From a virus (Duplodnaviria; Caudoviricetes): 64,000 nt of DNA. The position numbers were made by a program, and so were the translations under genes. Under the pieces are notes generated by a model. It saw nothing but the letters and a program-made list of their open reading frames with translations, did not search any database and had not been told where the DNA came from. This document shows, in pieces, positions 35,827-53,367 of the stretch (position 1 is its first letter; each line of letters begins with the position of its first letter). The stretch lies in the IMG/VR virus record IMGVR_UViG_3300032285_003957, positions 96,001 to 160,000 of that record. One strand, given 5' to 3'.

Positions 35827-38685
35827 ATGGCAAATTCAAACAAAGTATTCGTTTCTCCGGGTGTTTACACATCAGAGAAGGATTTAACATTCGTAGCTCA
35901 GAGCGTAGGTGTAACTACTTTAGGATTGGTTGGTGAGACCCTGAAAGGTCCTGCATTTGAACCAATTTTAATCGGAAGTTATGACGAATTCAAAACATAT
36001 TTCGGAACAACATCTCCTGAAAAGGATGGTTCGGGAGCACCAAAGTATGAACTACCTTATGTAGCTAAGGCTTATTTACAAGAATCAAACCAATTATTCG
36101 TAACAAGAATATTGGGTAAAACTGGTTACCTACCATATAAAACATTCGGTATTCAAACAATCGGTGGAATGGTTGTTAATTTAGCATCATTCACACATAG
36201 TGCTTCTACTATGGACCCTGATGCGCATACAGGTATGACAAATAGTAGTTTCTACTCAGCATTAAACGCTCACACATCAGTTGACGGTGTGAACTCTGTT
36301 GCAGCATATATTGAAAAGAACTATAGCGGAAATACACAACATCCTTCAACAGGTGCATGGTTCCAAATCGGTGCAATTCCTGATACAGACGTTCCTGGTG
36401 GAAGTAAATTATTATCTCCATTCAGTGCATATAACAATAAGAATTGGTATAATGTATGGAATAATGGAACTGACGCAGTTTATTCTTATTTATTTGTATG
36501 GAATGTAGGCGGATGGTTTGATGTGACAAGATATGTATATGCTGCTGAAGTTAATGCCGATTATGATGGTATTACTGTTGCAGCTTTAAGATCAAGAGGT
36601 CATTACGATACTCACCAAAATTTAGTGTTAGAAGTAACTGGTGACACAAGCTTCCAATTAGCTGATGTTAGTGGTATTCAAACAAACCCATTGGCGGAGT
36701 TTTCAATAAATGTAACAGGACATACAGGTGGTGTTAAATCATTCACATGTTCATTAGATACAACTTCTACAAAATACATCACTAAAGTTTTAGGAACAGG
36801 TGTATTTGATAAAGACTACAGCGGTCATCCGTTATATGTTCATGAAGTTTATCCTAACTTATTATTAAACGCTTATAATCAAGGGTTTATCAAAGGTTTA
36901 AGTTTAGTTGAAGTTTACAATCTTGAAGGTGATGATTTCAAACAACCTTGGGATACTACAATGTCAAATATGGTTGTATCTGAAGTTAGAGGTAATAAAG
37001 TTGACGAATTATTCTCAGTTCAAACAATTGCGGATGGTGAAGCAGCTAACTTCCAATTAAAAATACAAATTCAAAACATTAACATTGAAACAGGTGAATT
37101 TGATATGGTTCTTCGTGATTTCTACGATACTGATGATAATCAAGTAGTATTAGAGAAATTTACAAGATGTTCAATGAATCCTGATTTACCGGGTTACATC
37201 GCAAGAAAAGTCGGAACATCAGATGGTGAATATCCATTAAATTCAAAATACATTACATTAGTAATGGCAGACGGTGCACCAACAGATGCATTCCCTGCAG
37301 GTTTCAAAGGTTTCGTAAACAATAGCGCGTTTGGTAGTGACAATACTTTAGGTAATGTTTTATATAAAACAAACTATTTTGATGCAGGTGAAACAGTATA
37401 CTACAATGCTGATGGTAGTGTTAAAATGTCTGATGGTGACAAAGTAAGAAGAGTAACTTTAGGTTTATCTACACAATCTGGATTCAAATATGATGAAGAT
37501 TTATTCAAATATAAAGGATACGGCGCAAGTAGTTCAACTTATGGTTTCCACCTTTCAACTAACGCATCTTCAATTGTTGATACACAGAGTAAACAAGTTT
37601 ATCAAACAACAGGTTATGATTTAGAAGGTCAAACAGGTGACGCTAATAACAAATTAACAAACATTAATTACCGTAAATTTACTTTCGCAGTATGTGGTGG
37701 TTTTGATGGTTGGGATATCTACAGAAGCACAAGAACAACTGGAGATGGTTACATCTACGGTAAACACACTTACATTTCAGGTAACACTAACAATGGCGGT
37801 GTATTCAATGCTGATTATGGTAACTCAGATTATTATGCTTACTTAGCAGGTATTCAAACATATTCTAATCCTGAAGCAATTGACATTAACTTATTTGCAA
37901 CTCCTGGTATCAATTTCATTGACCATAGTTCATTAGTTAGTCAAGCAATTGATATGGTTGAAAATGATAGAGCTGACTCATTATACATTATTGGTGCTCC
38001 AGGTCCTAACTCACAACAAGAAGTTGATGGTGTAGTTGGTGATTTAGAATTATCAAATATTGATTCTAACTACTCAGCAACATATTGGCCTTGGATTCAA
38101 GTAAGAGACACTGACAATGCAACTCAAATCTATCTTCCACCAACAGGTGAAGTAGTTAAGAACATTGCTTTAACAGATAATGTAGCTTATCCTTGGTTTG
38201 CACCTGCAGGTTATTCAAGAGGTTTGGTTAATGCAATCAAAGCTTACAAGAAATTAACACTTGATGATAGAGATACATTATACAAAAACAGAATTAACCC
38301 AATTGCAACATTCTCAGATACCGGTACCATTATTTGGGGTAACAAAACGTTACAAGTTAGAGAATCTGCTTTGGACAGAATCAACGTAAGAAGATTATTG
38401 TTAAGAGCAAGAAAGTTAATCTCTGCTGTTGCTGTAAGATTATTGTTTGAACAAAACGATGACCAAGTAAGACAAGAATTCTTAAGATTGGTAAACCCTA
38501 TCTTGGAATCAATTAAGAAAGAAAGAGGTTTGTATGAATTCAAAGTAACTGTGTCTAACGACCCAGAAGATATCGATGCAAATACATTGAGAGGTAAAAT
38601 TTACGTTAAGCCTACTCGTTCTCTTGAATTTATTGATTTGGAATTTGTAATTACTCCAACAGGAGCTTCATTTGAAAATATCTAA
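35827..38685 (+). CDS. Tail sheath protein (gp18-like)
   Basis: FVSPGVYTSEKD, YSATYWPW, PWFAPAGYSRG, LYKNRINPI, WGNKT, RINVRRL, KPTRSLEFI. Confidence 0.95.
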   Translation: MANSNKVFVSPGVYTSEKDLTFVAQSVGVTTLGLVGETLKGPAFEPILIGSYDEFKTYFGTTSPEKDGSGAPKYELPYVAKAYLQESNQLFVTRILGKTGYLPYKTFGIQTIGGMVVNLASFTHSASTMDPDAHTGMTNSSFYSALNAHTSVDGVNSVAAYIEKNYSGNTQHPSTGAWFQIGAIPDTDVPGGSKLLSPFSAYNNKNWYNVWNNGTDAVYSYLFVWNVGGWFDVTRYVYAAEVNADYDGITVAALRSRGHYDTHQNLVLEVTGDTSFQLADVSGIQTNPLAEFSINVTGHTGGVKSFTCSLDTTSTKYITKVLGTGVFDKDYSGHPLYVHEVYPNLLLNAYNQGFIKGLSLVEVYNLEGDDFKQPWDTTMSNMVVSEVRGNKVDELFSVQTIADGEAANFQLKIQIQNINIETGEFDMVLRDFYDTDDNQVVLEKFTRCSMNPDLPGYIARKVGTSDGEYPLNSKYITLVMADGAPTDAFPAGFKGFVNNSAFGSDNTLGNVLYKTNYFDAGETVYYNADGSVKMSDGDKVRRVTLGLSTQSGFKYDEDLFKYKGYGASSSTYGFHLSTNASSIVDTQSKQVYQTTGYDLEGQTGDANNKLTNINYRKFTFAVCGGFDGWDIYRSTRTTGDGYIYGKHTYISGNTNNGGVFNADYGNSDYYAYLAGIQTYSNPEAIDINLFATPGINFIDHSSLVSQAIDMVENDRADSLYIIGAPGPNSQQEVDGVVGDLELSNIDSNYSATYWPWIQVRDTDNATQIYLPPTGEVVKNIALTDNVAYPWFAPAGYSRGLVNAIKAYKKLTLDDRDTLYKNRINPIATFSDTGTIIWGNKTLQVRESALDRINVRRLLLRARKLISAVAVRLLFEQNDDQVRQEFLRLVNPILESIKKERGLYEFKVTVSNDPEDIDANTLRGKIYVKPTRSLEFIDLEFVITPTGASFENI

Positions 38686-39023: not shown

Positions 39024-39512
39024 ATGGCAGATTTATTAATGAAGATGCCGGTTCCATTTGAACCGAAACGTAAAAATCGATTTATCCTAAGATTTCCTTC
39101 TTCCTTGGGTATCAATGAATGGTATATCGCTTCTACGGCAAGACCAACAGCTAAAATCAAATCAGTAGAAATACCATTTTTGAATACGAAGTCTTACGTA
39201 GCAGGACAATTTGAATGGGAAGAAATCAAAGTAACATTTAGAGACCCAATCGGTCCTTCAGCATCTCAAGCTTTAATGGAATGGTTCCGTTTACATGCAG
39301 AATCAGTAACAGGTAGAATGGGTTATGCAGCTGGATACAAAAAAGATGTGGAATTAGAAATGTTAGACCCAACAGGAGTTGTTGTTGAGAAATGGATTTT
39401 ACAAGGATGTTTCTTAACTAACTTAAACTTCGGTGATTTAGATTACTCAAGAGATGATTTAGCGACAATCGATTGTAGTTTGAGAATGGATAGATGTATT
39501 CAAGTTTATTAA
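39024..39512 (+). CDS. Tail tube protein (gp19-like)
   Basis: FEPKRKNRF, WEEIKVTF, ALMEW, YKKD...LDPTG..VEKWILQGCF. Confidence 0.9.
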   Translation: MADLLMKMPVPFEPKRKNRFILRFPSSLGINEWYIASTARPTAKIKSVEIPFLNTKSYVAGQFEWEEIKVTFRDPIGPSASQALMEWFRLHAESVTGRMGYAAGYKKDVELEMLDPTGVVVEKWILQGCFLTNLNFGDLDYSRDDLATIDCSLRMDRCIQVY

Positions 39513-39616: not shown

Positions 39617-40366
39617 ATGAACAATCAATATATTGACCCAACAATTGCATATGACGTAGTTGAATTACCTAGTATGGGGATTTACTACCCAAATAAGAAA
39701 AAGTCCGTTAAAGTGGCTTATTTGACCGCCTCTGACGAAAATATATTAGCTGCACCCAACTTAACACAGACCAATCAAATCGTTACCGAAATTCTTAAAA
39801 GAAAAGTAGTAGATAAAGATATTGATGTTGAAGATTTAGTTGATGAGGATAGACAAGCTATTTTAATCTTTTTAAGAAATACTGCATTTGGAACTGAATA
39901 TAAAGTATCGTTAACTGACCCAAAAACAAATGAGTCTTTTGATGTTGAAGTTGATTTAAGTTCGTTATCATATAAGAAATTTGATTTAGTAGCTGACTCA
40001 AATGGTGAGTATTCGTATACAATGCCAAAAAGTGGTGCCGATGTAACATTTGTATTTGTTAATCAAAAACAAGAATTAGAATTAGACCAAATTCAAAAAA
40101 GTTGGAATGGTAATGGTGCTGCACCAATTATCACAAAAAGAATGGAAATGATGATTAAATCGGTTAGAGGTAATAGAGACCCAATGTCTATCAGACATTT
40201 CATCGAAAGTTTACCAATTAAAGATTCCCAAGATTTTAGAAAATATACACAAGAAAAGAAACCAGGTCTTGATTTAACCCAAAAAACAACAACCCCGTCA
40301 GGAGAAGAAGTCCAATTTAATATTGGATTCGGGGTGGAATTTTTTCGTCCTTTCTACGGATTATAA
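39617..40366 (+). CDS. Tail/baseplate assembly chaperone (T4 gp26-like)
   Basis: VELPSMG.YY, AYLTASDENIL, DRQAILIFLR, FIESLPIKDS, ends FFRPFYGL; lies between tube and tape measure. Confidence 0.75.
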   Translation: MNNQYIDPTIAYDVVELPSMGIYYPNKKKSVKVAYLTASDENILAAPNLTQTNQIVTEILKRKVVDKDIDVEDLVDEDRQAILIFLRNTAFGTEYKVSLTDPKTNESFDVEVDLSSLSYKKFDLVADSNGEYSYTMPKSGADVTFVFVNQKQELELDQIQKSWNGNGAAPIITKRMEMMIKSVRGNRDPMSIRHFIESLPIKDSQDFRKYTQEKKPGLDLTQKTTTPSGEEVQFNIGFGVEFFRPFYGL

Positions 40367-40502
40367 AAAAGACCAACTTACCGAGATTTTATTTTTAGTC
40401 AAAAGAGGATTCACTTATGGTGATGTCCTTACTATGCCTGTATATGTAAGGAGATATTACATCCAATATATCATTGAGATGGAAGAAGAAAATAACAAAT
40501 AA
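40344..40502 (+). CDS. Unlisted overlapping ORF lacking a 5' ATG; probable frameshift extension of the chaperone
   Basis: FVLSTDYKKDQLTEILFLVKRGFTYGDVLTMPVYVRRYYIQYIIEMEEENNK*; +1 frame starting in the T6 run. Confidence 0.65.
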   Translation, partial: FVLSTDYKKDQLTEILFLVKRGFTYGDVLTMPVYVRRYYIQYIIEMEEENNK

Positions 40503-40516
40503 CCTATTTATATACT

Positions 40517-42466
40517 ATGGGACTAACACCGTTAGAATATTTAGGAAAGAATCCAAAAATGAGTCTTAAGGATTTGAAAGATGCTTATCCAAATGAGGAT
40601 CATTCAAAGTTAGAGACTATTTTCAATAACCATAATAGCAATGCAAGTAGCACTAATTCATATAGTGATGTAAAAAGCGATGTAGGGTCAGGTGCTAAGG
40701 AACAGGGACGAAGTATTGGTAATGTTGTTGTAAAGGGTATTCAAGAAGCTTTTACTGCATCAGAAAGTAACGTAATGACCACCGCTAAGGATGAGTTTGT
40801 TACGGTAAACGATTTATTCAATAAAGTATTCACAGCTGAAGGTAAATTAAGAAGTGCAGGTGACATGTTCAAAGGTATTATGGAATCAGCCTTTAACGGC
40901 ATTAAAACATACTACCAACAACAAAGTGCGTTAATTACTGAAGTTAATACAAAAACAGGATTAACAGGTGAGTTATCAAAACAATTTAGAGAAGAATTAA
41001 CACAATCAAATATTAGTTTAACAAGGTTTGGAATAAGTTTTGAAGATTTATCAAATGCCGCAACAAAGTTAGTTTCTGAAAGTGGTAGATTTTTATTATA
41101 CAACAAAGAATCATTTGATTTATTTGCAAAAGTAGGACAAGCATATGTTGGTAACTTAGAAAAGTTAACAGCAATGTTACCTGAATTTGAAAAAGTAGGT
41201 ATTGGTGGTGTAAGTGCAGCAACAGCAATAGGTGATGCAGGACAAAAAGCTTTAACCTTAGGTTTGAATTCCCAAAAAGTAACGGGAATGATTGGTGAAA
41301 ATATTGGTAAATTAAATCAATACGGTTTTAAAAATGGTGTTGAAGGTTTATCAGCAATGACAAGAAAAGCCATTGAGTTTAGAACAGAATTAGGTAGTGC
41401 ATTTAGTATTGCTGAAAAAGTTATGGACCCTAAAGGTGCATTAGAATTTTCTGCTAAATTACAAGTTATTGGTGGTGCTATTGGTGATTTTGGTGACCCA
41501 CTTAAGTTAATGTATATGGCTACAAATAATGTTGAGGGATTACAAGATGCATTTATAAAAGCAGCAGGTGGTTTAGCAACATATAATGCGCAGCAAGGTA
41601 AATTTGAAATTAACTCTCTTAACATGAGAAGAGTTAGAGACATGGCTGAGGCGACAGGACAAAGTGTTGAGAATTTAACTAAAACAGCAATTGCATTCCA
41701 AGAAAGAGCATTTGCTAAAAATCAATTAATTAATTTAGGATTAAAACCTGAACAAGAAGAATTCATTACTAACCTCTCAAGAATGGAAGGTGGTAAGATG
41801 ACAATTGATTTACAAGGAACATCAATGAGAAGTATGTTTGCAGACATTGCTCAAAATGGTAAAGTCACTTTAGACCAAGTTAGAGATAACAAACAATTAC
41901 GTGAGGCGATAATAAAAAATCAAGATGAATTTGCAAAGAAAACACCTGAGCAAATTATTGCAAGTCAAGCATCAGATGTAAAACAAATTACAAGATATGT
42001 TAGCTTCTTAGTTGCAAGAGCAAGATTTGAAATGGGTAAAACGGCAGATGCGGGTATTGGAAAAGCATTAAGTGCTGCGTTTGGTGTTGATACAGATATT
42101 GTTGGGGCGATAAAAGGTAAATTAGCTTCAGGTGAAGTTAAGATGAAAGATTTAGGTGAAGATGTTAGAAAATTCATTGGCGCTAATGATGCTCGATTAA
42201 AAAGTTTAACAGCTAACGCAACAAAAAATGAAAACGATAGAGTGAACTTAGCCAATACTGCAGAAGCTCAAATGAAAAAAGATAAACAAGCTAACGCAAC
42301 TACAACTGCTAATACTAATAATCCACAAGAAGTTAAACATACTGTTGAAATAAAAGCACCTGCATTAATGGATGGTTGGTCAAGAGAAATGGTTAGAGAT
42401 TCAAGCATAGCTGATTCATTTACTTACGTAAACCCAAGATCATATACAGCGTCAGAAAAAAAATAA
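40517..42466 (+). CDS. Tape measure-like protein
   Basis: Helical A/G-rich 649 aa after the chaperone; GLTGELSKQFR, GAIGDFGDPLKLMY. Confidence 0.7.
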   Translation: MGLTPLEYLGKNPKMSLKDLKDAYPNEDHSKLETIFNNHNSNASSTNSYSDVKSDVGSGAKEQGRSIGNVVVKGIQEAFTASESNVMTTAKDEFVTVNDLFNKVFTAEGKLRSAGDMFKGIMESAFNGIKTYYQQQSALITEVNTKTGLTGELSKQFREELTQSNISLTRFGISFEDLSNAATKLVSESGRFLLYNKESFDLFAKVGQAYVGNLEKLTAMLPEFEKVGIGGVSAATAIGDAGQKALTLGLNSQKVTGMIGENIGKLNQYGFKNGVEGLSAMTRKAIEFRTELGSAFSIAEKVMDPKGALEFSAKLQVIGGAIGDFGDPLKLMYMATNNVEGLQDAFIKAAGGLATYNAQQGKFEINSLNMRRVRDMAEATGQSVENLTKTAIAFQERAFAKNQLINLGLKPEQEEFITNLSRMEGGKMTIDLQGTSMRSMFADIAQNGKVTLDQVRDNKQLREAIIKNQDEFAKKTPEQIIASQASDVKQITRYVSFLVARARFEMGKTADAGIGKALSAAFGVDTDIVGAIKGKLASGEVKMKDLGEDVRKFIGANDARLKSLTANATKNENDRVNLANTAEAQMKKDKQANATTTANTNNPQEVKHTVEIKAPALMDGWSREMVRDSSIADSFTYVNPRSYTASEKK

Positions 42467-42486: not shown

Positions 42487-45400
42487 ATGCCAAGTTATTT
42501 AGATTTTGAATCAAGCAGAAATGGAAAAAATATCCCTGATTCCCAAACGGGCTTCAGAGATTATTTATTGGCTAAAACATTAAAAAGACCAAATGGTCCG
42601 CAAACATTTACTGCTGCAAATTATTCTGAACAAAGTTTATCTGAACTACCGAACAAAGATGTTGGTGGTATAGATAACAGTGAAAATTTTAATTTGAATA
42701 GTAGTTTGGTAAAAACTTCGGCAACAAACACATACAAACCAATTCAGTTTTTAGTTAAAGATACTTTGGTAACATTACCAAGAGCAAAGAATCTAAATTT
42801 ATATCCATATTTTGAAAGTTCAAATCATACCTTAATTGGTATTATGAGTGGAACAATAGACAATAAAGAATCGGATATGATTCAATTCGCTGAAAATTTT
42901 ATCAAGAACGATAGAAACGGACCCGTGTTTGCAAGATTAGCAAGAAATATTGACACTGAATTTAATGGTAAAAATAGATTATTAGATGCATTAAATGGTA
43001 ATACTGCAACAGCTATTAATTTAGTTACGGGTAGAGAACCATTAATTGAATATAATAATTCAATCACTGTTGCAAAAACATTACCGGGTAAAGCAATAGA
43101 TTTTTTAGAAAAGATAGCAGGTGTTACGGCACCATTTAGTGAAATACCTGGTGATTATTTAACTAATCCCGCACATCCAATTAACTATAGACAAACAATT
43201 GACCCAAAAACAGGACAACCTGTTGACCAATCACAATCAAATAAATTGTGGCAAGATATCACAGGTGCTATAGGTTCATTAATTGGTATACAAAGAAGAC
43301 CTAATTTCACAAGAAAGCCATCTGACTTAATGATTGAGTATTTGGGTGAAGGTCAAAAAATGAAATTATATAATGCGTTAACATTTAACACATATTCACC
43401 AAACTATTCAACAACAGCAATGTCACAAAACTCGTCAAAGGTTTTTAATTTCATTGATAAAGTTGCAAGTTTTGGTAAAAAATTAATTGGTGAAGAAGCA
43501 CCAAATGGTAAAGGTGTTTATGATAAACAAGGTAATTTAGTTGGACGTCGTTCAGCATATATTGGCGATGATAGAGGTGAGGATGTAAAACATGCAATGT
43601 CTGATTTTTACAGCATCATGTATAAGAGTCCTTTTTATCTTAGTCAAATGTTTGATGCAATACCTGGTGGTGGTTATTATGATGGAACAGATTTATTTCA
43701 TCAAAATAAACCATTAGTTTGGGTTAAAGCAAGTGGTGTAACAGATGGTTCAGCTGATATGAATTTCAGACCCGATTCATTATTAGATTATACACAATTT
43801 ATTGTTGGCCTTTCATCTAAAGATGGTGAAGACCACGTATCAAGAGCTATTGATCAAACATCAAAATATTTTGTTGACGGTGGTAAAAAATTTTCAAAGG
43901 GTTCAGCTGTTAAATTACTAAAAGACAAAAGTAGTGATGTTATTGGTGCGGAATATGGTAGAGTGTGGACAAAAACAAATGGTTACAATAGTTTAGACAA
44001 AACAATGAAGCAAGGTTCAAACATAAGAAAGTTTGAAGGTAGCGTATTAGGTGGTAAAAGTAGAGTTTGGAATTTAAACATGGCACCAATGTCAAATGGT
44101 AAAAAATCATTTGAAGGTTCAACAAATATTTTTGAAAGAACAAATGGTGCTAAAGATTTCTATGCTAAAAAATATATGTTCTCTATTGAGAACTTAGCGT
44201 GGAAAACATCAACAATGCCGGGTTTCACATATGATTCATTACCTGCTTGTGAAAGAGGTAATAACTTTGGTAGAGTTATGTGGTTCCCACCATATGGTTT
44301 ACAAATTAGTGAACAGAACAATGCAAAATGGGAGGAGAATACCTTTTTAGGTAGACCTGAACCAATTTACACATATCAAAACACATCAAGAGGTGGACAA
44401 TTGAAATTTAAAATAATTGTTGACCACCCAAGTATTCTTAATTTATTAATAAGAGAACATTTTAAAGATATGACTGATGAACAAGCTGAAGAACATATCT
44501 TAGCTTTTTTTGCGGGAACAGAAACTTTTGATTTTTACACATTAATAAAAACATACACAACATTGGATGCTAATGATGTTGGGTTAATTAAAGCATTTAT
44601 GAATGCACACAATAAACCTGACACATCAACAATTAAAAAGTATAGATATACAAGTGAACCCGTTCCAACAGACAACCCATCAAAACCAGATAATACTAAA
44701 CCCGGAGCACCAATAAAAGCATCTTTTTATTTTGAAAATGATGTTCCTGGTAAATTTTCTGAAAAGAAATCAACATCTGATTTTACTTATGCTCAATTAT
44801 ATGCACCTTATTTAAACAAGAAAGAACAATATCAAGTAGACTTAGCAACGGATTTAAATCAATTATTAACAGGAACAACAGCTGATTACAAATCGGATAT
44901 AAAAGTTATATTTGGAAATGATGTAAAATCTGAAGAAAAAGCAACCGCAATTTCAAAAAGAGTTGAATCTGTTGGTAAAATCTTTGATAAGATGAGAGAC
45001 GATTTTGCAGGCTTAAATACAAGTCTTGCAGATTTGAAAAAACAAATATCAGGTAATACGGTTGATGACGTTACAATTGTTATTGAAAGTTCCACATCAG
45101 AAGTCGGCGAAGATAACCCAAACTTTTATTTAGGTGTTAGAAGAGCTCATAGCATTGCACAAACAGTATTTGAGTTATTAACTGCACCGGGAACTAAAAT
45201 AGATTTTTTAAAATGGCCATCAAGTAGCGATTTAAAAGATAGTTCTAAGAAAGGTTCTGACTTTTTAAAGAATGAATATCCGTTATCAAGTTTTGGTTGG
45301 AAAGAAAATAAAGGTAAATTAAAGTTATCATTCAAATCATACGGTGAAGACTATCAATCAGGTGACTTTAGTTGTAAACAAGTTATTAAAACAAAATTTG

Positions 45401-47268
45401 GTTTAAAGAAAACCGCACCGGTTGCAGTTGGTTGTAGAACTGGTTCTGTTAAGATTACATATGATGTTAAAAATAATCCTGCAACAGTAACAACTGTTCC
45501 ACAAAAAATTAAAATAATTGTGGACGAAGAACCACTGGTTCCTATTCCTAAACCTACAATTGATGTTATGAAACGTATCATCATGAAAACTTTAGGTGAA
45601 TGTTATTATTTTAAAAAATTAGAAGATACAGATCCATTAGTATTCAATGCGTTAAGAGATAAATTAAAATATTTTCATCCTGCATTTCATTCAACAACAC
45701 CTGAAGGTTTAAATACAAGATTAACATTCTTGTTACAATGTGTTAGACCAGGTGATACAATACCTATTAAAGGATTAACTGATGCTTTGGACCAAAATGC
45801 GAGAAATACAACTTTTGGACCACCACCAATTTGTATATTAAGAATTGGTGATTTCTATCATTCAAAAATTATTATTCGTGATGTTAATATCGATTATGAA
45901 GATAATTTATGGGATATGAATCCTGAGGGAATTGGTGTGCAACCAATGATTGCTAACGTTAGTTTATCAATAAACTTTATTGGCGGACAAGGTTTAGAGA
46001 AACCCGTTGAAAGATTACAAAATGCATTATCGTCAAACTTCTTCGCTAATACAGAAATGTATGACGAAAGATCAACATCAACTAACACAATAATTGACGG
46101 TAAAGTAGCTGAAGATTTTGAATATGAATTTTTACATGAATTAGAAAAGAAACCTGAATATCAATTAGTTGATGATGCTGACAAAGGTAACAATGTTTTT
46201 GAAGGACAAACAGTAGGAAAAGCAGATATAAACAATCAAGGACCAATTTTAAGTTATAATTGGTTAATCGATAGTATATATAACTATTCTAAAGTTTACA
46301 CCGACGGAGTTACATCTGCATATGAAAAAATGGTAAAAGATTATGGATTCAAAATTGCAAATCCATTCTTTAATCCTTCAATTAGAACTATAAACCAATA
46401 TGATGTTCAAACACCAAGCGGAACAACACCAATAGGATTTATCGGTTTACACCCAAAAGGTAGTGATATACAAACAACAATTTTAAAAATAAAAACGGCC
46501 GTTCTTGATGCTGTTGAAAACAGTAATTTAGCGGTTGATATTTTAAAGTTAGTTGATAACGCAGACGACGGCCCTGTAACGGAATTAGAAAGAGCGTTAA
46601 AACCATTAATTAAAAAAGTTATTACTGACAAATTAGATGCTATTTCAAGTATTGGCGCTTTAAAAGAAATTGATGACAAGAGAAATGCTGTAACTAGTGA
46701 TTTTGATTACATGAACTATGTTATAAAATACGGAAAAGACGGTTTTATAACAGGAACAACATATAATGACGTTTCATTAAATGGTTTCACAAAAGAAGAA
46801 TTATTTGGTGGATATTCAAATGTTGTAGGTTATCTTTTAGATTTTAATAATAATATGATTCAATCATTAGATACGAGCCTTGATTTTATGGCCATACAAG
46901 GTTTACCGGCTCAAGAAGCAAAAGTTATTATACCTTATTTGATTAAAGATGATGAAAACAAAATTATTGAAGAATTAAAAAAAGAAGAAATTCTTTCATT
47001 AAGTGATTCAACTGGTTTACCATATATTAATAAAATAACGATTAATTTATATAGTCAATCACCTAAACCAATAACAGATTTCAAATACAAGAAAACGACT
47101 GAAGTAAAAAGAAAAGATACTAAAAAATACGAATACGTTAAAGGTGCTGTAGAAGAAATCGCTGCCGAAGACCCTGATGGTAAAAAACCAATTTTGAACA
47201 ATCTTTGGATTAATAAAAATATTGAACCAACAGGAACTAAATTAAATTATTATAAAAAGAAAGGATAA
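42487..47268 (+). CDS. Giant baseplate/tube-initiator-like protein with inserted OmpA-like domain
   Basis: WEENTFLGRPEPIYTY..R..LKFKIIVD and PPICILRIGDF...VNIDY...P..ANVSLS flank FYFEND...IESSTSE...NFYLGVRRAHSI. Confidence 0.6.
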   Translation: MPSYLDFESSRNGKNIPDSQTGFRDYLLAKTLKRPNGPQTFTAANYSEQSLSELPNKDVGGIDNSENFNLNSSLVKTSATNTYKPIQFLVKDTLVTLPRAKNLNLYPYFESSNHTLIGIMSGTIDNKESDMIQFAENFIKNDRNGPVFARLARNIDTEFNGKNRLLDALNGNTATAINLVTGREPLIEYNNSITVAKTLPGKAIDFLEKIAGVTAPFSEIPGDYLTNPAHPINYRQTIDPKTGQPVDQSQSNKLWQDITGAIGSLIGIQRRPNFTRKPSDLMIEYLGEGQKMKLYNALTFNTYSPNYSTTAMSQNSSKVFNFIDKVASFGKKLIGEEAPNGKGVYDKQGNLVGRRSAYIGDDRGEDVKHAMSDFYSIMYKSPFYLSQMFDAIPGGGYYDGTDLFHQNKPLVWVKASGVTDGSADMNFRPDSLLDYTQFIVGLSSKDGEDHVSRAIDQTSKYFVDGGKKFSKGSAVKLLKDKSSDVIGAEYGRVWTKTNGYNSLDKTMKQGSNIRKFEGSVLGGKSRVWNLNMAPMSNGKKSFEGSTNIFERTNGAKDFYAKKYMFSIENLAWKTSTMPGFTYDSLPACERGNNFGRVMWFPPYGLQISEQNNAKWEENTFLGRPEPIYTYQNTSRGGQLKFKIIVDHPSILNLLIREHFKDMTDEQAEEHILAFFAGTETFDFYTLIKTYTTLDANDVGLIKAFMNAHNKPDTSTIKKYRYTSEPVPTDNPSKPDNTKPGAPIKASFYFENDVPGKFSEKKSTSDFTYAQLYAPYLNKKEQYQVDLATDLNQLLTGTTADYKSDIKVIFGNDVKSEEKATAISKRVESVGKIFDKMRDDFAGLNTSLADLKKQISGNTVDDVTIVIESSTSEVGEDNPNFYLGVRRAHSIAQTVFELLTAPGTKIDFLKWPSSSDLKDSSKKGSDFLKNEYPLSSFGWKENKGKLKLSFKSYGEDYQSGDFSCKQVIKTKFGLKKTAPVAVGCRTGSVKITYDVKNNPATVTTVPQKIKIIVDEEPLVPIPKPTIDVMKRIIMKTLGECYYFKKLEDTDPLVFNALRDKLKYFHPAFHSTTPEGLNTRLTFLLQCVRPGDTIPIKGLTDALDQNARNTTFGPPPICILRIGDFYHSKIIIRDVNIDYEDNLWDMNPEGIGVQPMIANVSLSINFIGGQGLEKPVERLQNALSSNFFANTEMYDERSTSTNTIIDGKVAEDFEYEFLHELEKKPEYQLVDDADKGNNVFEGQTVGKADINNQGPILSYNWLIDSIYNYSKVYTDGVTSAYEKMVKDYGFKIANPFFNPSIRTINQYDVQTPSGTTPIGFIGLHPKGSDIQTTILKIKTAVLDAVENSNLAVDILKLVDNADDGPVTELERALKPLIKKVITDKLDAISSIGALKEIDDKRNAVTSDFDYMNYVIKYGKDGFITGTTYNDVSLNGFTKEELFGGYSNVVGYLLDFNNNMIQSLDTSLDFMAIQGLPAQEAKVIIPYLIKDDENKIIEELKKEEILSLSDSTGLPYINKITINLYSQSPKPITDFKYKKTTEVKRKDTKKYEYVKGAVEEIAAEDPDGKKPILNNLWINKNIEPTGTKLNYYKKKG

Positions 47269-47594
47269 TGAGTAGAAGTTATGTAGATAGGTATCAGTAT
47301 TTTATGAACGATGGTGAATATAAAATCGTTCCAGGTATTGATATACCATTTAAAGGAACCGACCGATATACCCAATACAAAAAAGGTAGAGACAGATTAG
47401 ATAGGATTTCCCAAGAAAACTACGGGTCACCTTTATTCGGATGGTTAATATTAATTGCTAACCCAAGGGTTGGTAGTATTGAGTTTGAAATTCCTGATAA
47501 TTCGTATTTAAGAATACCATATCCATTAATTAGTTCATTACAAGACTATAAAAATCAGGTGGATTTGTATAAATTGTATTATGGCGAACAGTAA
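47268..47594 (+). CDS. LysM-like baseplate protein (gp53/P2 gpX-like)
   Basis: DRLDRISQENYGSPLFGWLILIANP...IPDNSYLRIP. Confidence 0.75.
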   Translation: MSRSYVDRYQYFMNDGEYKIVPGIDIPFKGTDRYTQYKKGRDRLDRISQENYGSPLFGWLILIANPRVGSIEFEIPDNSYLRIPYPLISSLQDYKNQVDLYKLYYGEQ

Positions 47595-50500
47595 TATTCC
47601 GGGTAATGAAAATATACTTGTTAAAGTAGACCAAAACAACATCGTATTTATTGACCCCAATAGCGTTGTTGAGAATGGTGATGTTAAAACAAGAAATGTC
47701 CAACAAGAAAATCTTGTTATCTATGTTAATTTAGAAGCGGATTTAATTGAAAGAACTGTATTGGCAGTTAACAATACTGAAGAACCTTCAGCAAAATCCT
47801 CATTGTTATCTGTTGCTAAGGGAACGTTAAACATGTTAAAAAATAACAATGGTAATGATTTTGATACAACATGGACAAATTCATTTATTGAGAATACAAA
47901 AACTACAACAAACAATGGTAAAACAACCAAAACATTTGTTGATAGTATGGCAGATTCATCTGCACAATCATTCGGTATTGAAAGTGTTAATATAACAATT
48001 GCAGGTGCTAACTTTATACCACAAATCAACATCAACTTTATTGATGTTAGAGGGAAGACATTATTTGAGTCACCAAAGAACTCACCATATTCAGCATTTT
48101 TCCATTTACCTTGGCCAATATTTTATTTAACGGTTAAGGGGTTTTATGGTAAAGCAATTAGATACAGATTACACTTAGTTGATTTTTCATCATCATTTAA
48201 TGGAACAACGGGTAACTTTGATATCAACACAACATTTGTTGGTTCAACGTATGCGTATTTGAATGATATCCCATTAGACGGTGCGTTCACCGCTCCATAT
48301 CTTTATTCAATTGAAAAAGATAGAAAATCAACAACAGTTGAAAAACAAGTAACAAACAATGGTAAAACGACAACCGAAAAAACAACAACAACAAAAATTA
48401 ACATCTCTAAGAATTCCAAAGGATACCAAATGTTACATTCGGTATATCAGGAATATATTCAAAAGGGGTTACTACCTAAAAATTTTAGAACAATCACATT
48501 AAGCGAATTGGTGAATAAAGCCAAAAGCTTGGATATGGTTATTGAACAATCAATTTTTAAAGGTGTTGATGCTAAAGTTTTTGCAGGTATAAAAGAATAT
48601 GAGGATACGTTAAATGATTTTGAAACATCATTAAATGCGTGGAAATCTTCTTATACCGATACCAAACCAATAACTGTAGGTAATAAAGTTTATTACCCAT
48701 TAAAAGCAAGTCTTAACGGAAAAACTGATTCTGTTTTTAACACAAGCGACGCAAATTCGTTGGTTAGTATTTTAAAATCTTATCCTGAAAAATTATCTAA
48801 ATCTGCAATTTTCATTGATAAATTTGTTAAAGATAAAACTAACGCTTCATTTAAAGGATTGTCGTTCGTTTATAAAAATTATATACAAGATGTTGGGAAA
48901 TATACATTAGAAGATAGTCCAAATTTCTTGGTTAACATCAGTGGAGACGAAACAAATCCAACAAGTATATTAAATGACTTGTATAGAATGTTCGCATCGT
49001 TTGTTGAACAAAGAGATAAGTTTCAGAAAAAAATTGAAGAATTAATCAATAACGTAATTAGAGATTCTAAAACAGGTTTAGGATTTGAACCAACGGTAAG
49101 AAACGTTATTGGTGTTTTATTAGCAAATGCGGATGTGTATGTTAGATTATTAAAAGATGTTCATACAAGAGCATTTAACGCAGGTGCAAAACGAAAAGAT
49201 AAAGTTACTCCGATGTGTAATGAAACAATCGGTAAAAATGAAGTTTATCCTTGGCCTGAAATCACAAAAGCCTCATCAGGTAGTAAACAAAAAGTAATTG
49301 TATATCCGGGTGACGAAAGTATGTATAGAACATTGGGTTCAAATGACCCATCATTATGGCCAGAGGTTGAGTTTGTTGAAAACTATATTGCTGTATCAAC
49401 AAAAAGAGTTGACCCAAAAGCAGACAAAGAAGGTGGTGTTAATAAAGTGGATTTTGTTTTTGAACAAGATGAAAAGTATTCTAAAACAAAAAGAATATCT
49501 ACATTATTTCAATTGTGGGATGACGCACCTTATGTTAATAAAACCTTAAGTTCGGTATTATTTGAAATTTGGGAAAGAGCAAGATATGCTACTTTTTATG
49601 ATTCATATGATTTAAAGGTTGTCGAAGAAATTGCAAAAATAGAATCGGAAAATTTAAAAGAATGTATAACTGAAGATTTGGACATTATTGAAATGTTAAA
49701 ATCGGTATTAACAGTTAATAAAGATGATAACGCTGCAGGCATTACCGATTCATATCATAAATTTTTAGCATATTTGGATAGTTTTTCACCATTTGAAAGA
49801 GCACCTTATCTAAAAGATTTTTTACCAACAGTTCCATATGTTAAGGATATTATAACACAGTCATTTACATTAGAACAATATGGTGATGCAACGATTTTTG
49901 TAAATAACGATAAGGATTATCCAAAATTAAGCACGTTTATAAAATCATATGAACCTGAAAAATACAGAGCAGACATATATCCATTCAAGTCACCAACTTA
50001 TTTGTCATATCTTAATTTAACTAAGTTTGATAAGGTTAAACAATTAAGAATGTCCAACATATTGAATGTGAACACTGAAGATGGTTTAATTAGCACATCG
50101 AACAATTTAAAATGGGTTAAAAGCGGATTTGAGGATAATTTATTTAAAAACCAAATTACATTCCCTAACCAAACAAAGGTTCATATTTTAAACACACCAT
50201 ATTTTCATAAAGCATTACTTTATGATGTATCAAGACCTGTATCATATGCAAAATATGTTGGTTCAGCTTATTTGTTATTGAACTCATTACCATTTAAGGA
50301 CTTATCTGACACAATGATTGATGAGACAACAAAGAGTGAGGTGATGTTATCAACAATGTTTAAAGAAGCTGGTGCTTCTCATACAATACCATATCATTTA
50401 ATTTGTAAGTGGGGTTCAATATATCATAGATATAAAAACTATGTTTTAGACGGCGGTGATATTTTATCAGGATTTACAACAAGTAATATGATAAACCCAA

Positions 50501-53367
50501 TAAGCGGTTCAACGGCTTTTGATGACAATGCGGGTTTAACATATGTATTGTATGGCAAGAACGTATCAGATGATACCAATGATATTGGTATTCATCCATT
50601 TTATGATGATGTTTTTTATCAAGTTGTAAATGGTTATAGTTTCTTTGACCCACATGCGGGTAGTGTTGAATACAACGAAAAAATTGATAATGGAATTGTT
50701 AAAAACAGAATCAGAACAAAAGTAGGAACAAGGTATTACACCAATTATATTCAAAATTTTAATATTGACGCTACGGATGCTTTTTATACGTTACTACCAT
50801 GTGATGGCGCAAATACGCCTGATACAAATTTAAATGTAAACAAAGATTTAGCATTAGATGCTCAAAATGGTTATAGAATATTATGGTATACTGGTGAAAC
50901 GGCTAATGTAGATTATTCTAACAAAAAAATACCAAGCCCTTATGAATATATGTCAACACTTGTAACAGGTGGCACAAGAAACGGTGATAATATCTATGGG
51001 TTTGCTGACAACTACAGAAAAGTTATTGATTTAATTGCGACGTTTAGTCCTGAAATATTAGACAAGTTTGAAGAAACATTTTTAGAATTTGCATCTGAAA
51101 ATTTAAACTTAGAAATACCTTATGTTAGATATCCAAATGTCAGCATGAGTAAATTCCAAGATTTATTGAAATCCATTGTTACGGTAGGTAAGTCTAATAT
51201 TACTTCAACAGAAACGGATGCGGTTATTAAAGAGTTGAGTGAAAAACAAGGTGCAAGACTTAAAACAATGACCACAGCTATGCTTGCACAAAATAGTTTA
51301 ATGAAACTTACAATATCAAATCCAAAAGATATTGATATTAACATTTTAGGTGGATTTGTTGGCTTTGAAAAAATTAGAACATCATATGGTCCATATCAGG
51401 AATACAAATACGAAGACAACAAAAAATATATCGATTTATACATCGGGGAAGAATTAGACATAACTAAAAAGTATAAAAGATTCTTCATGGATAATAACAT
51501 TGACCTCAATGAACAAAATGTTAGAGCGCTAAGACCATTGGTTTATATATATGCAGGTGGGATGGCACATAACTTTAATACCCCTGAGGGATTTAAAGTT
51601 TATTTGACGGAAAATATTATCCTTCCTTATACAACAAGAAATAGATTATTCATCGATTTAATTATTAGAGGATTTAAAGATTTGCAAAATACAAACGGCG
51701 GAAGTCCGTTAAGTTTATACAAAGGTTATAATACCGAAATCAACAAAATAAACATGTATAGTGATTTTAAATCATTTAACGATAAATGGGTTGCAGGTAA
51801 CTCAATCGGTCAGCGTTTATTATTAGAAGAATTTTTGTTTATCGATAGAGCAAACAGAGATATTGGTGATAACGCTTATGTTGATATTGGTAAAATCATT
51901 TCACTTGACGACTCCCAAAATACTAAAACATCAATATATAGTGCAATAGGGACACTCATTGAAGGTTCTAACTTTATATTCAGAGGATTACCTGCGTATG
52001 TAAATTTCTACGGCTCAAATTTATCTACCAAATCAAAATTGGAAGGTTCTAAAAAAACAGCAAGAAATATTTTTGGAACATTCTTGGAAGTAGATTACCA
52101 AGAAGCAAGTCCAAAGATGATTATTCAATACGTTGGCCCAACATCAAAACATCTTGATATGGAATATATTCAAGACAAGATGAAATTTAAAAATGATAGC
52201 GGTAATTTATTTGACATGAACGCAAGTCCATTAATCATTACCAATAACGATATTCTAAAAACAGGAGATTTAAATAAATCAAATAAGGTTGTTGCGTTTG
52301 AAATTAGTATTGGTGACCAAGCAAATGGTTTGTTTAAAGGAATAAAACTTGACCAAGCAACGTTAAGAAATTCATATGCATCACAAATTGTAAATGAAAA
52401 CATGGGTCGTTCTGAAACTGGTTCGGGTGTTTATCAAGTTGATATCGGGTTGTTTGACATATACAGACAAGTATCCTATACTTGCGAAGTAACAATGATG
52501 GGATGTGCAATGATACAACCGTCCATGTATTTCTATTTGAAAAATGTTCCAATGTTTAAGGGTTCATATTGGATTACGGAAGTAAAACATAACATTAGAA
52601 ATAATGGTATGGAAACATCCTTTACGGGATATAGAATGCCATATGCTGCATTACCTGACCCTAAGGATTCAATCATGTTAGCTTATAGAGCATTATTCGA
52701 ATCAATAACTAATAAAGCAATAGCGTTAGTTAAATCTGAAAATACAAACATTGCAAGCAAATCAAATGTTGCGACTCAAAACGATAAAAATATTATAGAC
52801 CAAAAAGGTAAACAAAAAACAATCAACGAAGGTGACCCTAAAGCATTACCTAAAAACTTTGTTGAAACCAAAATTAATAAATCCGATTTATACAATGAGG
52901 TTATACCTTATAATGGTTACGAAGGTGAAAAGCTTATTCAATTAGTTAAACTTGAAGATGGTGTTGAATGGTTAAAAGCAGTTGCATGCACATTGGGTGG
53001 TAAAAATAATTCACTTGACGATAATACAGCATTCTATATTGCCACTTTCGCTTCAGGAACTCAAACAACATGGAAAAATTTGAAAGGATTTACAGATACA
53101 GCCAGTATGTATACAACAAAATTCAAACAAGACCATTTGAATGAATTACAAATAACCAATTTACAAAACAAGAGCACAGTATTTTTAAACCCGTATAATA
53201 ATAAAACATTGAATGTAACACATTCATTATGTCCTAATTGTCCAATCCCTAACGGACCAATTGGTATAGGGCCAAATAGCAACAAGTATGGTATTGCATT
53301 ATCTAAAGCAGCTATGTCTCGTTTAGGGTTATACGAAGGTCAAACAGTTTATTTCAGGTTTAAATAG
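47581..53367 (+). CDS. Very large baseplate hub protein (gp27/VgrG-like, 1928 aa)
   Basis: FGIESVNI...ININFIDVRG near the N-terminus; YTCEVTMMGCAMIQP...GSYWITEVKHNI...TSFTG near the C-terminus. Confidence 0.65.
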   Translation: MANSNIPGNENILVKVDQNNIVFIDPNSVVENGDVKTRNVQQENLVIYVNLEADLIERTVLAVNNTEEPSAKSSLLSVAKGTLNMLKNNNGNDFDTTWTNSFIENTKTTTNNGKTTKTFVDSMADSSAQSFGIESVNITIAGANFIPQININFIDVRGKTLFESPKNSPYSAFFHLPWPIFYLTVKGFYGKAIRYRLHLVDFSSSFNGTTGNFDINTTFVGSTYAYLNDIPLDGAFTAPYLYSIEKDRKSTTVEKQVTNNGKTTTEKTTTTKINISKNSKGYQMLHSVYQEYIQKGLLPKNFRTITLSELVNKAKSLDMVIEQSIFKGVDAKVFAGIKEYEDTLNDFETSLNAWKSSYTDTKPITVGNKVYYPLKASLNGKTDSVFNTSDANSLVSILKSYPEKLSKSAIFIDKFVKDKTNASFKGLSFVYKNYIQDVGKYTLEDSPNFLVNISGDETNPTSILNDLYRMFASFVEQRDKFQKKIEELINNVIRDSKTGLGFEPTVRNVIGVLLANADVYVRLLKDVHTRAFNAGAKRKDKVTPMCNETIGKNEVYPWPEITKASSGSKQKVIVYPGDESMYRTLGSNDPSLWPEVEFVENYIAVSTKRVDPKADKEGGVNKVDFVFEQDEKYSKTKRISTLFQLWDDAPYVNKTLSSVLFEIWERARYATFYDSYDLKVVEEIAKIESENLKECITEDLDIIEMLKSVLTVNKDDNAAGITDSYHKFLAYLDSFSPFERAPYLKDFLPTVPYVKDIITQSFTLEQYGDATIFVNNDKDYPKLSTFIKSYEPEKYRADIYPFKSPTYLSYLNLTKFDKVKQLRMSNILNVNTEDGLISTSNNLKWVKSGFEDNLFKNQITFPNQTKVHILNTPYFHKALLYDVSRPVSYAKYVGSAYLLLNSLPFKDLSDTMIDETTKSEVMLSTMFKEAGASHTIPYHLICKWGSIYHRYKNYVLDGGDILSGFTTSNMINPISGSTAFDDNAGLTYVLYGKNVSDDTNDIGIHPFYDDVFYQVVNGYSFFDPHAGSVEYNEKIDNGIVKNRIRTKVGTRYYTNYIQNFNIDATDAFYTLLPCDGANTPDTNLNVNKDLALDAQNGYRILWYTGETANVDYSNKKIPSPYEYMSTLVTGGTRNGDNIYGFADNYRKVIDLIATFSPEILDKFEETFLEFASENLNLEIPYVRYPNVSMSKFQDLLKSIVTVGKSNITSTETDAVIKELSEKQGARLKTMTTAMLAQNSLMKLTISNPKDIDINILGGFVGFEKIRTSYGPYQEYKYEDNKKYIDLYIGEELDITKKYKRFFMDNNIDLNEQNVRALRPLVYIYAGGMAHNFNTPEGFKVYLTENIILPYTTRNRLFIDLIIRGFKDLQNTNGGSPLSLYKGYNTEINKINMYSDFKSFNDKWVAGNSIGQRLLLEEFLFIDRANRDIGDNAYVDIGKIISLDDSQNTKTSIYSAIGTLIEGSNFIFRGLPAYVNFYGSNLSTKSKLEGSKKTARNIFGTFLEVDYQEASPKMIIQYVGPTSKHLDMEYIQDKMKFKNDSGNLFDMNASPLIITNNDILKTGDLNKSNKVVAFEISIGDQANGLFKGIKLDQATLRNSYASQIVNENMGRSETGSGVYQVDIGLFDIYRQVSYTCEVTMMGCAMIQPSMYFYLKNVPMFKGSYWITEVKHNIRNNGMETSFTGYRMPYAALPDPKDSIMLAYRALFESITNKAIALVKSENTNIASKSNVATQNDKNIIDQKGKQKTINEGDPKALPKNFVETKINKSDLYNEVIPYNGYEGEKLIQLVKLEDGVEWLKAVACTLGGKNNSLDDNTAFYIATFASGTQTTWKNLKGFTDTASMYTTKFKQDHLNELQITNLQNKSTVFLNPYNNKTLNVTHSLCPNCPIPNGPIGIGPNSNKYGIALSKAAMSRLGLYEGQTVYFRFK

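Follow-up and report, generated by a model that had tools for sequence, protein, structure and literature searches.

In this study we describe a tail chaperone gene of a virus of the Caudoviricetes (Duplodnaviria) which very probably gives rise to two nested proteins, comparable to gpG and gpGT of phage lambda, by means of a +1 slip of the ribosome at UUU-UUU-CGU. The gene resides in a 64,000-nucleotide (nt) stretch of DNA (referred to here as the window) that comprises positions 96,001 to 160,000 of the IMG/VR record IMGVR_UViG_3300032285_003957. Its frame-0 product, a protein of 249 amino acids (aa), is placed by sequence comparison among the assembly chaperones of the T4 gp26/gp51 type, and in natural in-frame relatives the putative extension is contiguous with the domain that defines this family.

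In frame 0 the 3' end of the gene reads ...GGG GTG GAA TTT TTT CGT CCT TTC TAC GGA TTA TAA. The segment GAA TTT TTT CGT occupies positions 40337-40348, and the T6 run begins eight sense codons 5' of the stop of the 249-aa gene. The +1 frame is open from position 40278 to a TAA at 40500-40502, and candidate starts within it are limited to two, TTG at 40323 and ATG at 40434. The original prediction, made from this DNA alone, had pointed to the T6 run and to an overlapping open reading frame (ORF) in the +1 frame with a weak TTG or a late internal ATG, and the sequence reads as described; the length of 52 aa quoted for this ORF is close enough to the 51 residues that are counted from the slip site. 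Since the in-frame motif TTT_TTT_CG occurs only once among the 125 long ORFs of the 234-kb genome, and since both the site and the frame are kept in every related locus examined, the presence of this sequence cannot be ascribed to chance.

Conservation of the probable slip site and of the +1 frame

A first scan of viral contigs yielded eight relatives of the gene, all with GAR TTT TTT CGY followed by a conserved +1-frame peptide. A profile scan of viral contigs revealed more than 580 relatives in IMG/VR. The best 80 of these were fetched and 77 could be evaluated (41-94% identical to the window protein); the site statistics given below were counted over 77 distinct sequences. A hidden Markov model (HMM) of the extension produced a significant match in the +1 frame at all 77 loci and in the -1 frame at none of them (0/77). 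By this comparison, the downstream +1 frame is a conserved coding sequence.

The site itself is equally well preserved. The second Phe codon is TTT in 77/77 relatives and the first in 76/77, TTT_C is present in every sequence (77/77), and the T6 run is kept in 76/77, the single exception (L041) being TTC_TTT_CGC, which is still UUU_C. The next codon is CGN in 76/77 cases (with T in 37, C in 29, G in 8 and A in 3), the remaining sequence having CTC; the wobble base of CGN varies freely, giving V, A, G or D as the first residue of the extension and leaving the frame-0 Arg unchanged. The frame-0 tail and the frame-0 stop are also conserved. The persistence of TTTTTTC and of the downstream frame in homologues, which had been proposed as a check of the original prediction, is therefore evident (TTT_CGN in 76/77, TTT_C in 77/77 and the extension in the +1 frame in 77/77).

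The second ORF of a G/GT-type system is expected to have no start of its own, and this can be seen directly in part of the relatives. There is no ATG, GTG or TTG between the upstream +1-frame stop and the site in 16 of the 77 loci, and in 13 of these 16 the stop directly abuts the Phe codons. In the latter a conventional start is first reached 16-94 nt downstream, beyond residues that are conserved, and the change of frame is confined to the nine codons between the +1-frame stop and the frame-0 stop. The candidate TTG starts of other relatives do not occupy a conserved position. Independent initiation at the TTG or ATG, put forward at the outset as the finding that would speak against frameshifting, cannot account for the ORF. 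A conserved frameshift site together with a startless second ORF (77/77, 76/77 and 16/77 for the +1 frame, TTT_CGN and the lack of a start, respectively) is thus shared with G/GT-type genes. Their usual -1 shift on an X_XXY_YYZ heptamer is not: the frame here is +1, and the -1 frame closes quickly.

An exhaustive profile search for which the extension by itself served as the query identified 248 proteins, mostly ORFs of 30-110 aa that had been called separately. Two of the sequences found with the extension have a different structure. In P0005 the transition from frame 0 to the +1 frame is situated about 10 codons 5' of the usual position, an indel in the contig being the probable cause. The extension motif stands at the beginning of P0056 (335 aa), which continues into a long downstream protein; here the extension may be fused to the next gene, or the start may have been miscalled.

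The +1-frame target can be reached by a +1 or by a -2 slip, both of which, as had been pointed out in the original prediction, keep tRNA-Phe paired on the T6 run. Variants of the site favour the first of these options. L041 (TTC_TTT_CGC), Flavobacterium phage immuto (AGC_TTT_CTT; 3 isolates) and LR756508, a 484-kb uncultured phage (AAC_TTT_CTA), have no T6 run and keep UUU_C; because tRNA-Phe can re-pair in them after a +1 slip (UUU to UUC) and not after a -2 slip, the direction is most likely +1. At the sites of Microcystis phage Mel-JY01 (TTT_TTT_TGG) and of Listeria phage LIS04 (TTT_TTT_AGT), tRNA-Phe could re-pair with UUU after a +1 slip from UUU. An HMM built solely from the clade of the window (alignment A2) recognized the +1-frame peptide in Mel-JY01 (E 7e-12), immuto (4e-4) and LR756508 (5e-4). 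The order sheath, tube, hub gene, gap or small ORF, and tape measure recurs in immuto, Mel-JY01 and LIS04/SP-15 (the last being a Bacillus phage), with no frameshift annotated in any of them; GenBank lists the extension as a separate ORF in Mel-JY01 and immuto.

A variant of another kind was found in the Agrobacterium jumbo phage Atu_ph07 (L102, NC_042013.1, about 470060-470300). At the end of its "baseplate hub" gene the extension lies in the -1 frame, behind CA T_TTT_TTC GCA TGA, in which T_TTT_TTC is a canonical -1 heptamer; the extension is related to the tail of the in-frame protein P0140 described below (BLASTP, E 2e-7). The -1 site is not annotated, and GenBank lists only a 40-aa hypothetical protein at this place. 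Annotation of a frameshift was absent from every public record inspected, and we found no published description of frameshifting in gp26/gp51 or "baseplate hub" genes in a search that mostly did not reach subscription journals. Exceptions of the +1 or -2 type among tail chaperones have already been noted.

In-frame relatives and the link to T4 gp26 and gp51

The 249-aa protein matches PF12322 ("T4_baseplate"), the family of T4 gp26 and gp51, with 36.9 bits (gathering cut-off 24.5) over residues 25-232 (profile positions 10-206 of 219), and phrog_150 ("baseplate hub") with E 1e-12. The 234-kb record contains only one PF12322 gene, as do LIS04 and LR756508, whereas T4 has two. The designation of the locus as a lambda G/GT arrangement therefore stands as far as the order of genes is concerned, and does not extend to sequence homology with lambda gpG, the family being that of gp26/gp51.

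The original prediction had also suggested that the extension is a chaperone C-terminal module, and this is supported by two natural, metagenomic relatives that have the domain and the extension in one frame. In P0140 (331 aa) PF12322 covers residues 55-260 and the extension follows in frame at 265-312, with the junction ...NFF-GLPDNYR encoded by the non-slippery TTC TTC GGA. P0058 (293 aa) can be aligned from end to end with the fusion product predicted for the window (E 2e-31). It is encoded in L101, a Logan contig from SRR13933267, whose order is tube, 51-aa ORF, 252-aa short copy, P0058 (long) and two tail genes, so that short and long PF12322-type paralogues stand in tandem at 865-2514. 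The short copy shares 33% identity with the window protein, and its C-terminus is ...LDFFYPNTNQ. L101 is a two-gene solution placed in tandem at the same locus, and a natural intermediate between the single gene with a frameshift and the two genes of T4. A word-based search among proteins of 161-515 aa sharing words with the extension gave no close in-frame fusion; the distant ones came from the later profile search.

The lineages without a frameshift (L101 and T4) keep both a short and a long gene. T4 gp26 (208 aa) and gp51 (249 aa), which are listed as hub assembly chaperones in a review of the T4 tail (PMC3004832, Table 2), both belong to PF12322, and only gp51 carries a tail. In a MAFFT alignment the end of gp26 (...KEFFELL) stands opposite ...GVEFF of the window protein, and the gp51 tail stands opposite the extension. 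The coverage of phrog_150 follows the same pattern: 14-235 for gp26 and 13-280 for gp51, compared with 17-233 for the short form of the window and 17-273 for its fused form (+2.8 bits). A profile of gp51 tails was prepared from 92 sequences (T4 gp51 and 91 homologues) and compared with the extension profile using hhalign, which gave P 2e-5 and a score of 28.5; when the columns of the gp51 tails were shuffled 200 times, the score was 10.3 +/- 2.3 and reached 18.6 at most. The shared consensus is LVK-(F/Y)S-..-I(L/M)-M(P)-ER-...-L-E. From these sequence comparisons, the +1 extension is likely to be the equivalent of the gp51 C-terminal tail. In precomputed annotations of gp51 homologues a newer Pfam family, PF28602, stands beside PF12322; it probably corresponds to this tail.

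An AlphaFold model of the short form (pLDDT 89.5) and an independent model of the in-frame relative P0140 (pLDDT 92.8) were compared with 48,161 solved chains. In the P0140 model the extension forms three helices (266-280, 287-292 and 295-326). Both models share their top matches. The N-terminal half is matched by 3fgx_B (Z 6.2) and the second half by YqbN 3klu_A (Z 5.2-5.4); the others are 2ob9_B, the tail assembly chaperone of HK97 (Z 4.1-4.9), 5ir0_B and 3pes_B. All Z values are below 8 and hence not decisive. A Foldseek search against the Protein Data Bank (PDB) gave no significant match. YqbN is a tail chaperone of the XkdN type. With one match of tail-assembly-chaperone size per half, at modest Z, the models offer a lead, not a result, that the PF12322 domain may be built from two chaperone-like halves.

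Proposed mechanism and alternative explanations

According to the mechanism that we propose, most ribosomes would stop at 40364-40366 and release the 249-aa short form. A fraction would stall while peptidyl-tRNA-Phe occupies UUU and CGU, a minor Arg codon, stands in the A site; tRNA-Phe would then re-pair one base forward, from UUU to UUC (or, at the first codon, from UUU to UUU), and translation would proceed in the +1 frame to 40502. The resulting long form would consist of residues 1-243 and the 51-residue extension (294 aa), joined as ...GVEFF-VLSTDYK, with the predicted junction peptide ...GVEFFVLSTDYK. The two forms would constitute a G/GT-like pair, whose common domain would handle the tape measure and the hub, the three-helix extension adding a second contact. 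In T4 this pair would be supplied by two paralogues, gene 26 (short) and gene 51 (long).

In this genome TTT accounts for 73% of Phe codons, and AGA and CGT for 71% and 15% of Arg codons, respectively. CGU is used 4.4 times per 1000 codons; GUC, the codon that would enter the A site after the slip, is also rare (3.1 per 1000). The phage encodes its own tRNA-Arg(ACG). Upstream of the window, on the minus strand (C1:60886-68007 of the record), there are 25 clustered tRNA genes, which include tRNA-Phe(GAA), tRNA-Arg(ACG) and tRNA-Arg(TCT), i.e. readers of the slip codon and of the codon waiting in the A site. The frameshift could be tuned during infection by the tRNA supply of the phage itself.

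Two elements located upstream of the site, an RNA hairpin and the tetranucleotide GGGG (Table 1), may stimulate the slip. For a 30-nt segment at -36..-7 the mean folding energy over the 77 relatives is -5.7 kcal/mol, compared with -2.35 for synonymous recodings and -0.7 to -1.9 for most other segments of the gene. The stems covary, in that their sequences differ and their complementarity stays, the encoded residues changing too. When covariation was counted in a fixed register, no more than 57% of cells were paired, as the register is not the same in all clades; it is the excess of energy per sequence that supports the hairpin. The Gly codon 9 nt upstream of the site is GGG in 66/77 relatives, and this codon makes up 4.7% of Gly codons in the genome. 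In experiments, +1 shifting was stimulated by refolding upstream hairpins and Shine-Dalgarno duplexes (PMC3639245, PMC6321510), with upstream duplexes acting on 70S ribosomes (PMC6321510), and UUU_Ynn is known as a +1-prone site in bacteria (PMC5009743).

A second low-energy peak, lying over the site and formed by GGGG with CC(U) at +8..+11, was judged irrelevant, as both arms would be inside the ribosome at the slip. Two other stretches of the gene, 40103-40135 and 40259-40288 (about -237..-205 and -81..-52 from the site), are more stable than their surroundings in the 77 relatives (mean minimum free energy of 24-nt windows -2.8 and -2.2 kcal/mol, respectively).

Other events could bring the extension into frame. 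A -2 ribosomal frameshift on U6, in which the tRNA-Phe of the second UUU slips back by two bases, would yield ...EFFFVLSTDYK, with one extra Phe. The U6 tract, kept in 76/77 relatives, does permit perfect re-pairing, and -2 shifting on U6 tracts has been described in vitro when downstream structure is provided (PMC3458567). No conserved downstream structure is present at our site, however, the re-pairing possible in L041, immuto and LR756508 is that of a +1 slip, and the in-frame relatives have two junction residues (FF in P0140, LF in P0058) instead of three; we therefore consider a -2 shift very unlikely. Transcriptional slippage, by which the polymerase would drop one U from the T6 run (or add two) and bring some of the mRNAs into frame, would agree with a strongly conserved homopolymer placed exactly at the frame junction, but it assigns no role to the conserved C after the run or to the conserved CGN, and variants with TTT_C only or with TTC_TTT_C keep the arrangement. 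The bacterial cases of productive transcriptional slippage that are known use runs of about nine or more bases, in comparison with which six is short, and we give this explanation very little credence.

Just as improbable is a small gene in its own right, in which translation of the +1 ORF would start at a TTG or ATG belonging to it, or by reinitiation behind the stop of the chaperone gene. Gene callers routinely report an ORF of 30-110 aa here, as GenBank does for Mel-JY01 and immuto, and besides the TTG at 40323 some TTG, GTG or ATG lies upstream in frame in 61/77 relatives; yet no start position is conserved, 16/77 relatives are startless, and 13 of these would have no means of translating the conserved LST-Y...L-E segment. 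Moreover, the point at which the domain passes into the extension in the in-frame relatives is exactly the FF junction, and in Atu_ph07 the extension lies in a different frame, preceded by a textbook -1 heptamer. An assembly or sequencing indel in the homopolymer, or a decaying gene, the true gene being a single ORF of 294 aa, would fit with the error-prone nature of homopolymers and with the indel-like fusion in P0005. This possibility is close to negligible, given that the same break of frame is found in 77/77 independent metagenomic contigs and in cultured phages of different laboratories (the three immuto isolates and Mel-JY01), and that the frame-0 tail and stop are themselves conserved.

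Several observations weigh against the +1 slip and the roles that we assign to its product and to the accompanying elements. The "hungry codon" step is weakly supported, CGU being minor yet not very rare and the phage having its own tRNA-Arg(ACG). In the distant phages the hairpin ends 4-7 nt before the site, and hence inside the ribosome at the slip; Bacteroidota, the presumed hosts, use Shine-Dalgarno pairing little, which weakens the idea of a stimulatory GGGG. RNAalifold found no pairs downstream of the site in 39 sequences, where folding of the single sequence gave a z value of -1.1. The extension of Listeria LIS04 and Bacillus SP-15 is only weakly similar (E 0.1 in LIS04). The tail of T4 gp51 escaped detection by an HMM made from 11 extension sequences; as this simple model missed the link, which is carried by the profile-profile comparison and by colinearity, we rate the equivalence of extension and tail as likely and not as proven. 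Finally, the 649-aa ORF that follows the extension is probably the tape measure gene, an identification derived from its position and a single language-model lead.

Genomic context and comparison with known systems

The source record represents a 234-kb virus of 33% G+C, with completeness judged to be about 70%. The genes follow one another in the order sheath, tube, 249-aa gene, overlapping ORF, 649-aa ORF and 1593-aa ORF (Table 1). The predicted succession of tube, chaperone, overlapping ORF and tape measure is thus found in the coordinates, with the tape measure being probable. Placement between the tube and tape measure genes is typical of G/GT-type genes, and an annotated tape measure gene stands in the same synteny in immuto and LIS04. 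The description of the virus as a T4-like myovirus holds only loosely, for its tube, gp26-like and UvsX-like genes of T4 type.

Table 1. Coordinates of the probable slip site, its candidate stimulators and the surrounding genes in the window.
Feature	Coordinates	Strand	Remarks
Tail sheath gene	35827..38685		952 aa
Tail tube gene	39024..39512	+	162 aa; directly 5' of the chaperone gene; phrog_4542 tail tube protein, E 8e-27
Hub and tail assembly chaperone gene, gp26/gp51 family (short form)	39617..40366	+	249 aa; C-terminus ...GVEFFRPFYGL
Upstream RNA hairpin, candidate 5' stimulator	40309..40329	+	stem 40309-40316 with 40322-40329; -7.2 kcal/mol; ends about 11 nt before the T run
GGGG, possible Shine-Dalgarno-like stimulator	40331..40334	+	rare Gly codon GGG and the next base; 5 nt before the first UUU
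Shift site TTT TTT CGT	40340..40348	+	T6 40340-40345; CGT 40346-40348; frame-0 stop 40364-40366
+1-frame extension	40347..40502	+	51 codons (VLSTDYKK...EMEEENNK) and TAA stop
Probable tape measure gene	40517..42466	+	649 aa; directly 3' of the extension; assigned by position and language-model similarity

The match of the tube gene to PF06841 (T4 gp19; 25.4 bits) is slightly below the cut-off. Recognizable domains of the sheath protein are limited to approximately residues 664-943, and its large N-terminal and middle region has no assignment. The 649-aa ORF shows a language-model similarity of 0.93 to the PF10145 and TMP_3 clusters; it has no match in Pfam, PHROG or NCBIfam, and BLASTP revealed no similarity to the tape measure protein of immuto. 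It is directly followed by two giant ORFs, 42487-47268 (1593 aa) and 47581-53367 (1928 aa), neither of which has a PHROG match, the 1593-aa ORF also being without a Pfam match. They presumably encode baseplate or fibre proteins.

Frameshifted chaperone pairs characterize the long-tailed phages, with the T4-type phages as the noted exception; the hub roles of gp26 and gp51 are obscure. The system proposed here resembles lambda gpG/gpGT in that two nested products would come from one gene placed between the major tail (tube) and tape measure genes, the second ORF is startless, a conserved slippery site lies near the 3' end, and the long form would equal the short form plus a C-terminal module. 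It differs in the shift, which would be +1 at UUU_CGN instead of -1 at an X_XXY_YYZ heptamer, and in the protein, which is about twice the size of gpG and of another sequence family (PF12322), with a modest likeness of fold (Z 4-6 to 2ob9 and 3klu). For the lambda pair, and for the frameshift that is conserved in tail assembly chaperones among long-tailed phages, PMC5009743 cites Levin et al. (1993) and Xu, Hendrix and Duda (2004).

With T4 the system shares the family itself, the register of ...KEFFELL in gp26 with ...GVEFF in the window protein, and the match of the gp51 tail to the extension. In contrast, gp26 and gp51 are products of two separate, divergently transcribed genes with no frameshift, which lie beside genes 27-28-29 and not directly after the tube gene, and their identity to the window protein is about 15%. 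On balance, we consider it somewhat more probable than not that the gp26/gp51 family, with two chaperone-like half-domains, is the tail assembly chaperone that has long been missing in myoviruses of the T4 type and in many jumbo myoviruses. An ancient need for a short and a long form would then have been met within one ancestral gene family in three ways: by a +1 slip at UUU_CGN, by a -1 slip at U_UUU_UUC, or by duplication into two separate genes (the tandem of L101, gp26 with gp51). T4 gp51, which for decades has been named a "catalyst" of hub assembly, would be the long form of GT type, and the +1 cassette (hairpin, GGGG and UUU_UUU_CGN) a new bacterial +1 signal. This offers a testable hypothesis for T4, in which gp26 would be the short and gp51 the long form of a chaperone serving the tape measure and the hub. 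In the records of immuto, Mel-JY01 and Atu_ph07 the extension appears as a stray hypothetical ORF or is omitted, and annotation pipelines should join it to the chaperone gene.

As regards the slip itself, the closest likeness is to influenza A PA-X (UCC_UUU_CGU) and to amalgaviruses (PMC5009743), in which tRNA-Phe likewise moves from UUU to UUC with CGN in the A site and with no downstream structure. The original prediction had drawn this parallel from UUU-CGU, and it is justified: the pair of P-site and A-site codons is the same, with UUU_CGN in 76/77 relatives, and the shift is in the +1 direction, as judged from the variants without U6. The differences lie in the bacterial ribosome, in the preceding codon, which is UUU (after GAR) and not the UCC that adds to the efficiency of the PA-X cassette, and in the conserved upstream hairpin and GGGG that are present here. 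The likeness to PA-X is mechanistic and does not reflect shared ancestry. The bacterial prfB gene (RF2; CUU_UGA with an internal Shine-Dalgarno sequence) provides another parallel, i.e. a +1 slip by which the P-site tRNA moves onto an overlapping codon, cognate or near-cognate, with a G-rich motif a few bases upstream. Unlike in prfB, the A site would be occupied by a sense codon and not by a stop, the spacing of GGGG is 5-8 nt compared with 3 nt, and there is no autoregulatory logic. The relatives of the chaperone gene add a large, naturally replicated set of putative bacterial UUU_CGN +1 sites to a motif that has so far been known mainly from eukaryotic viruses.

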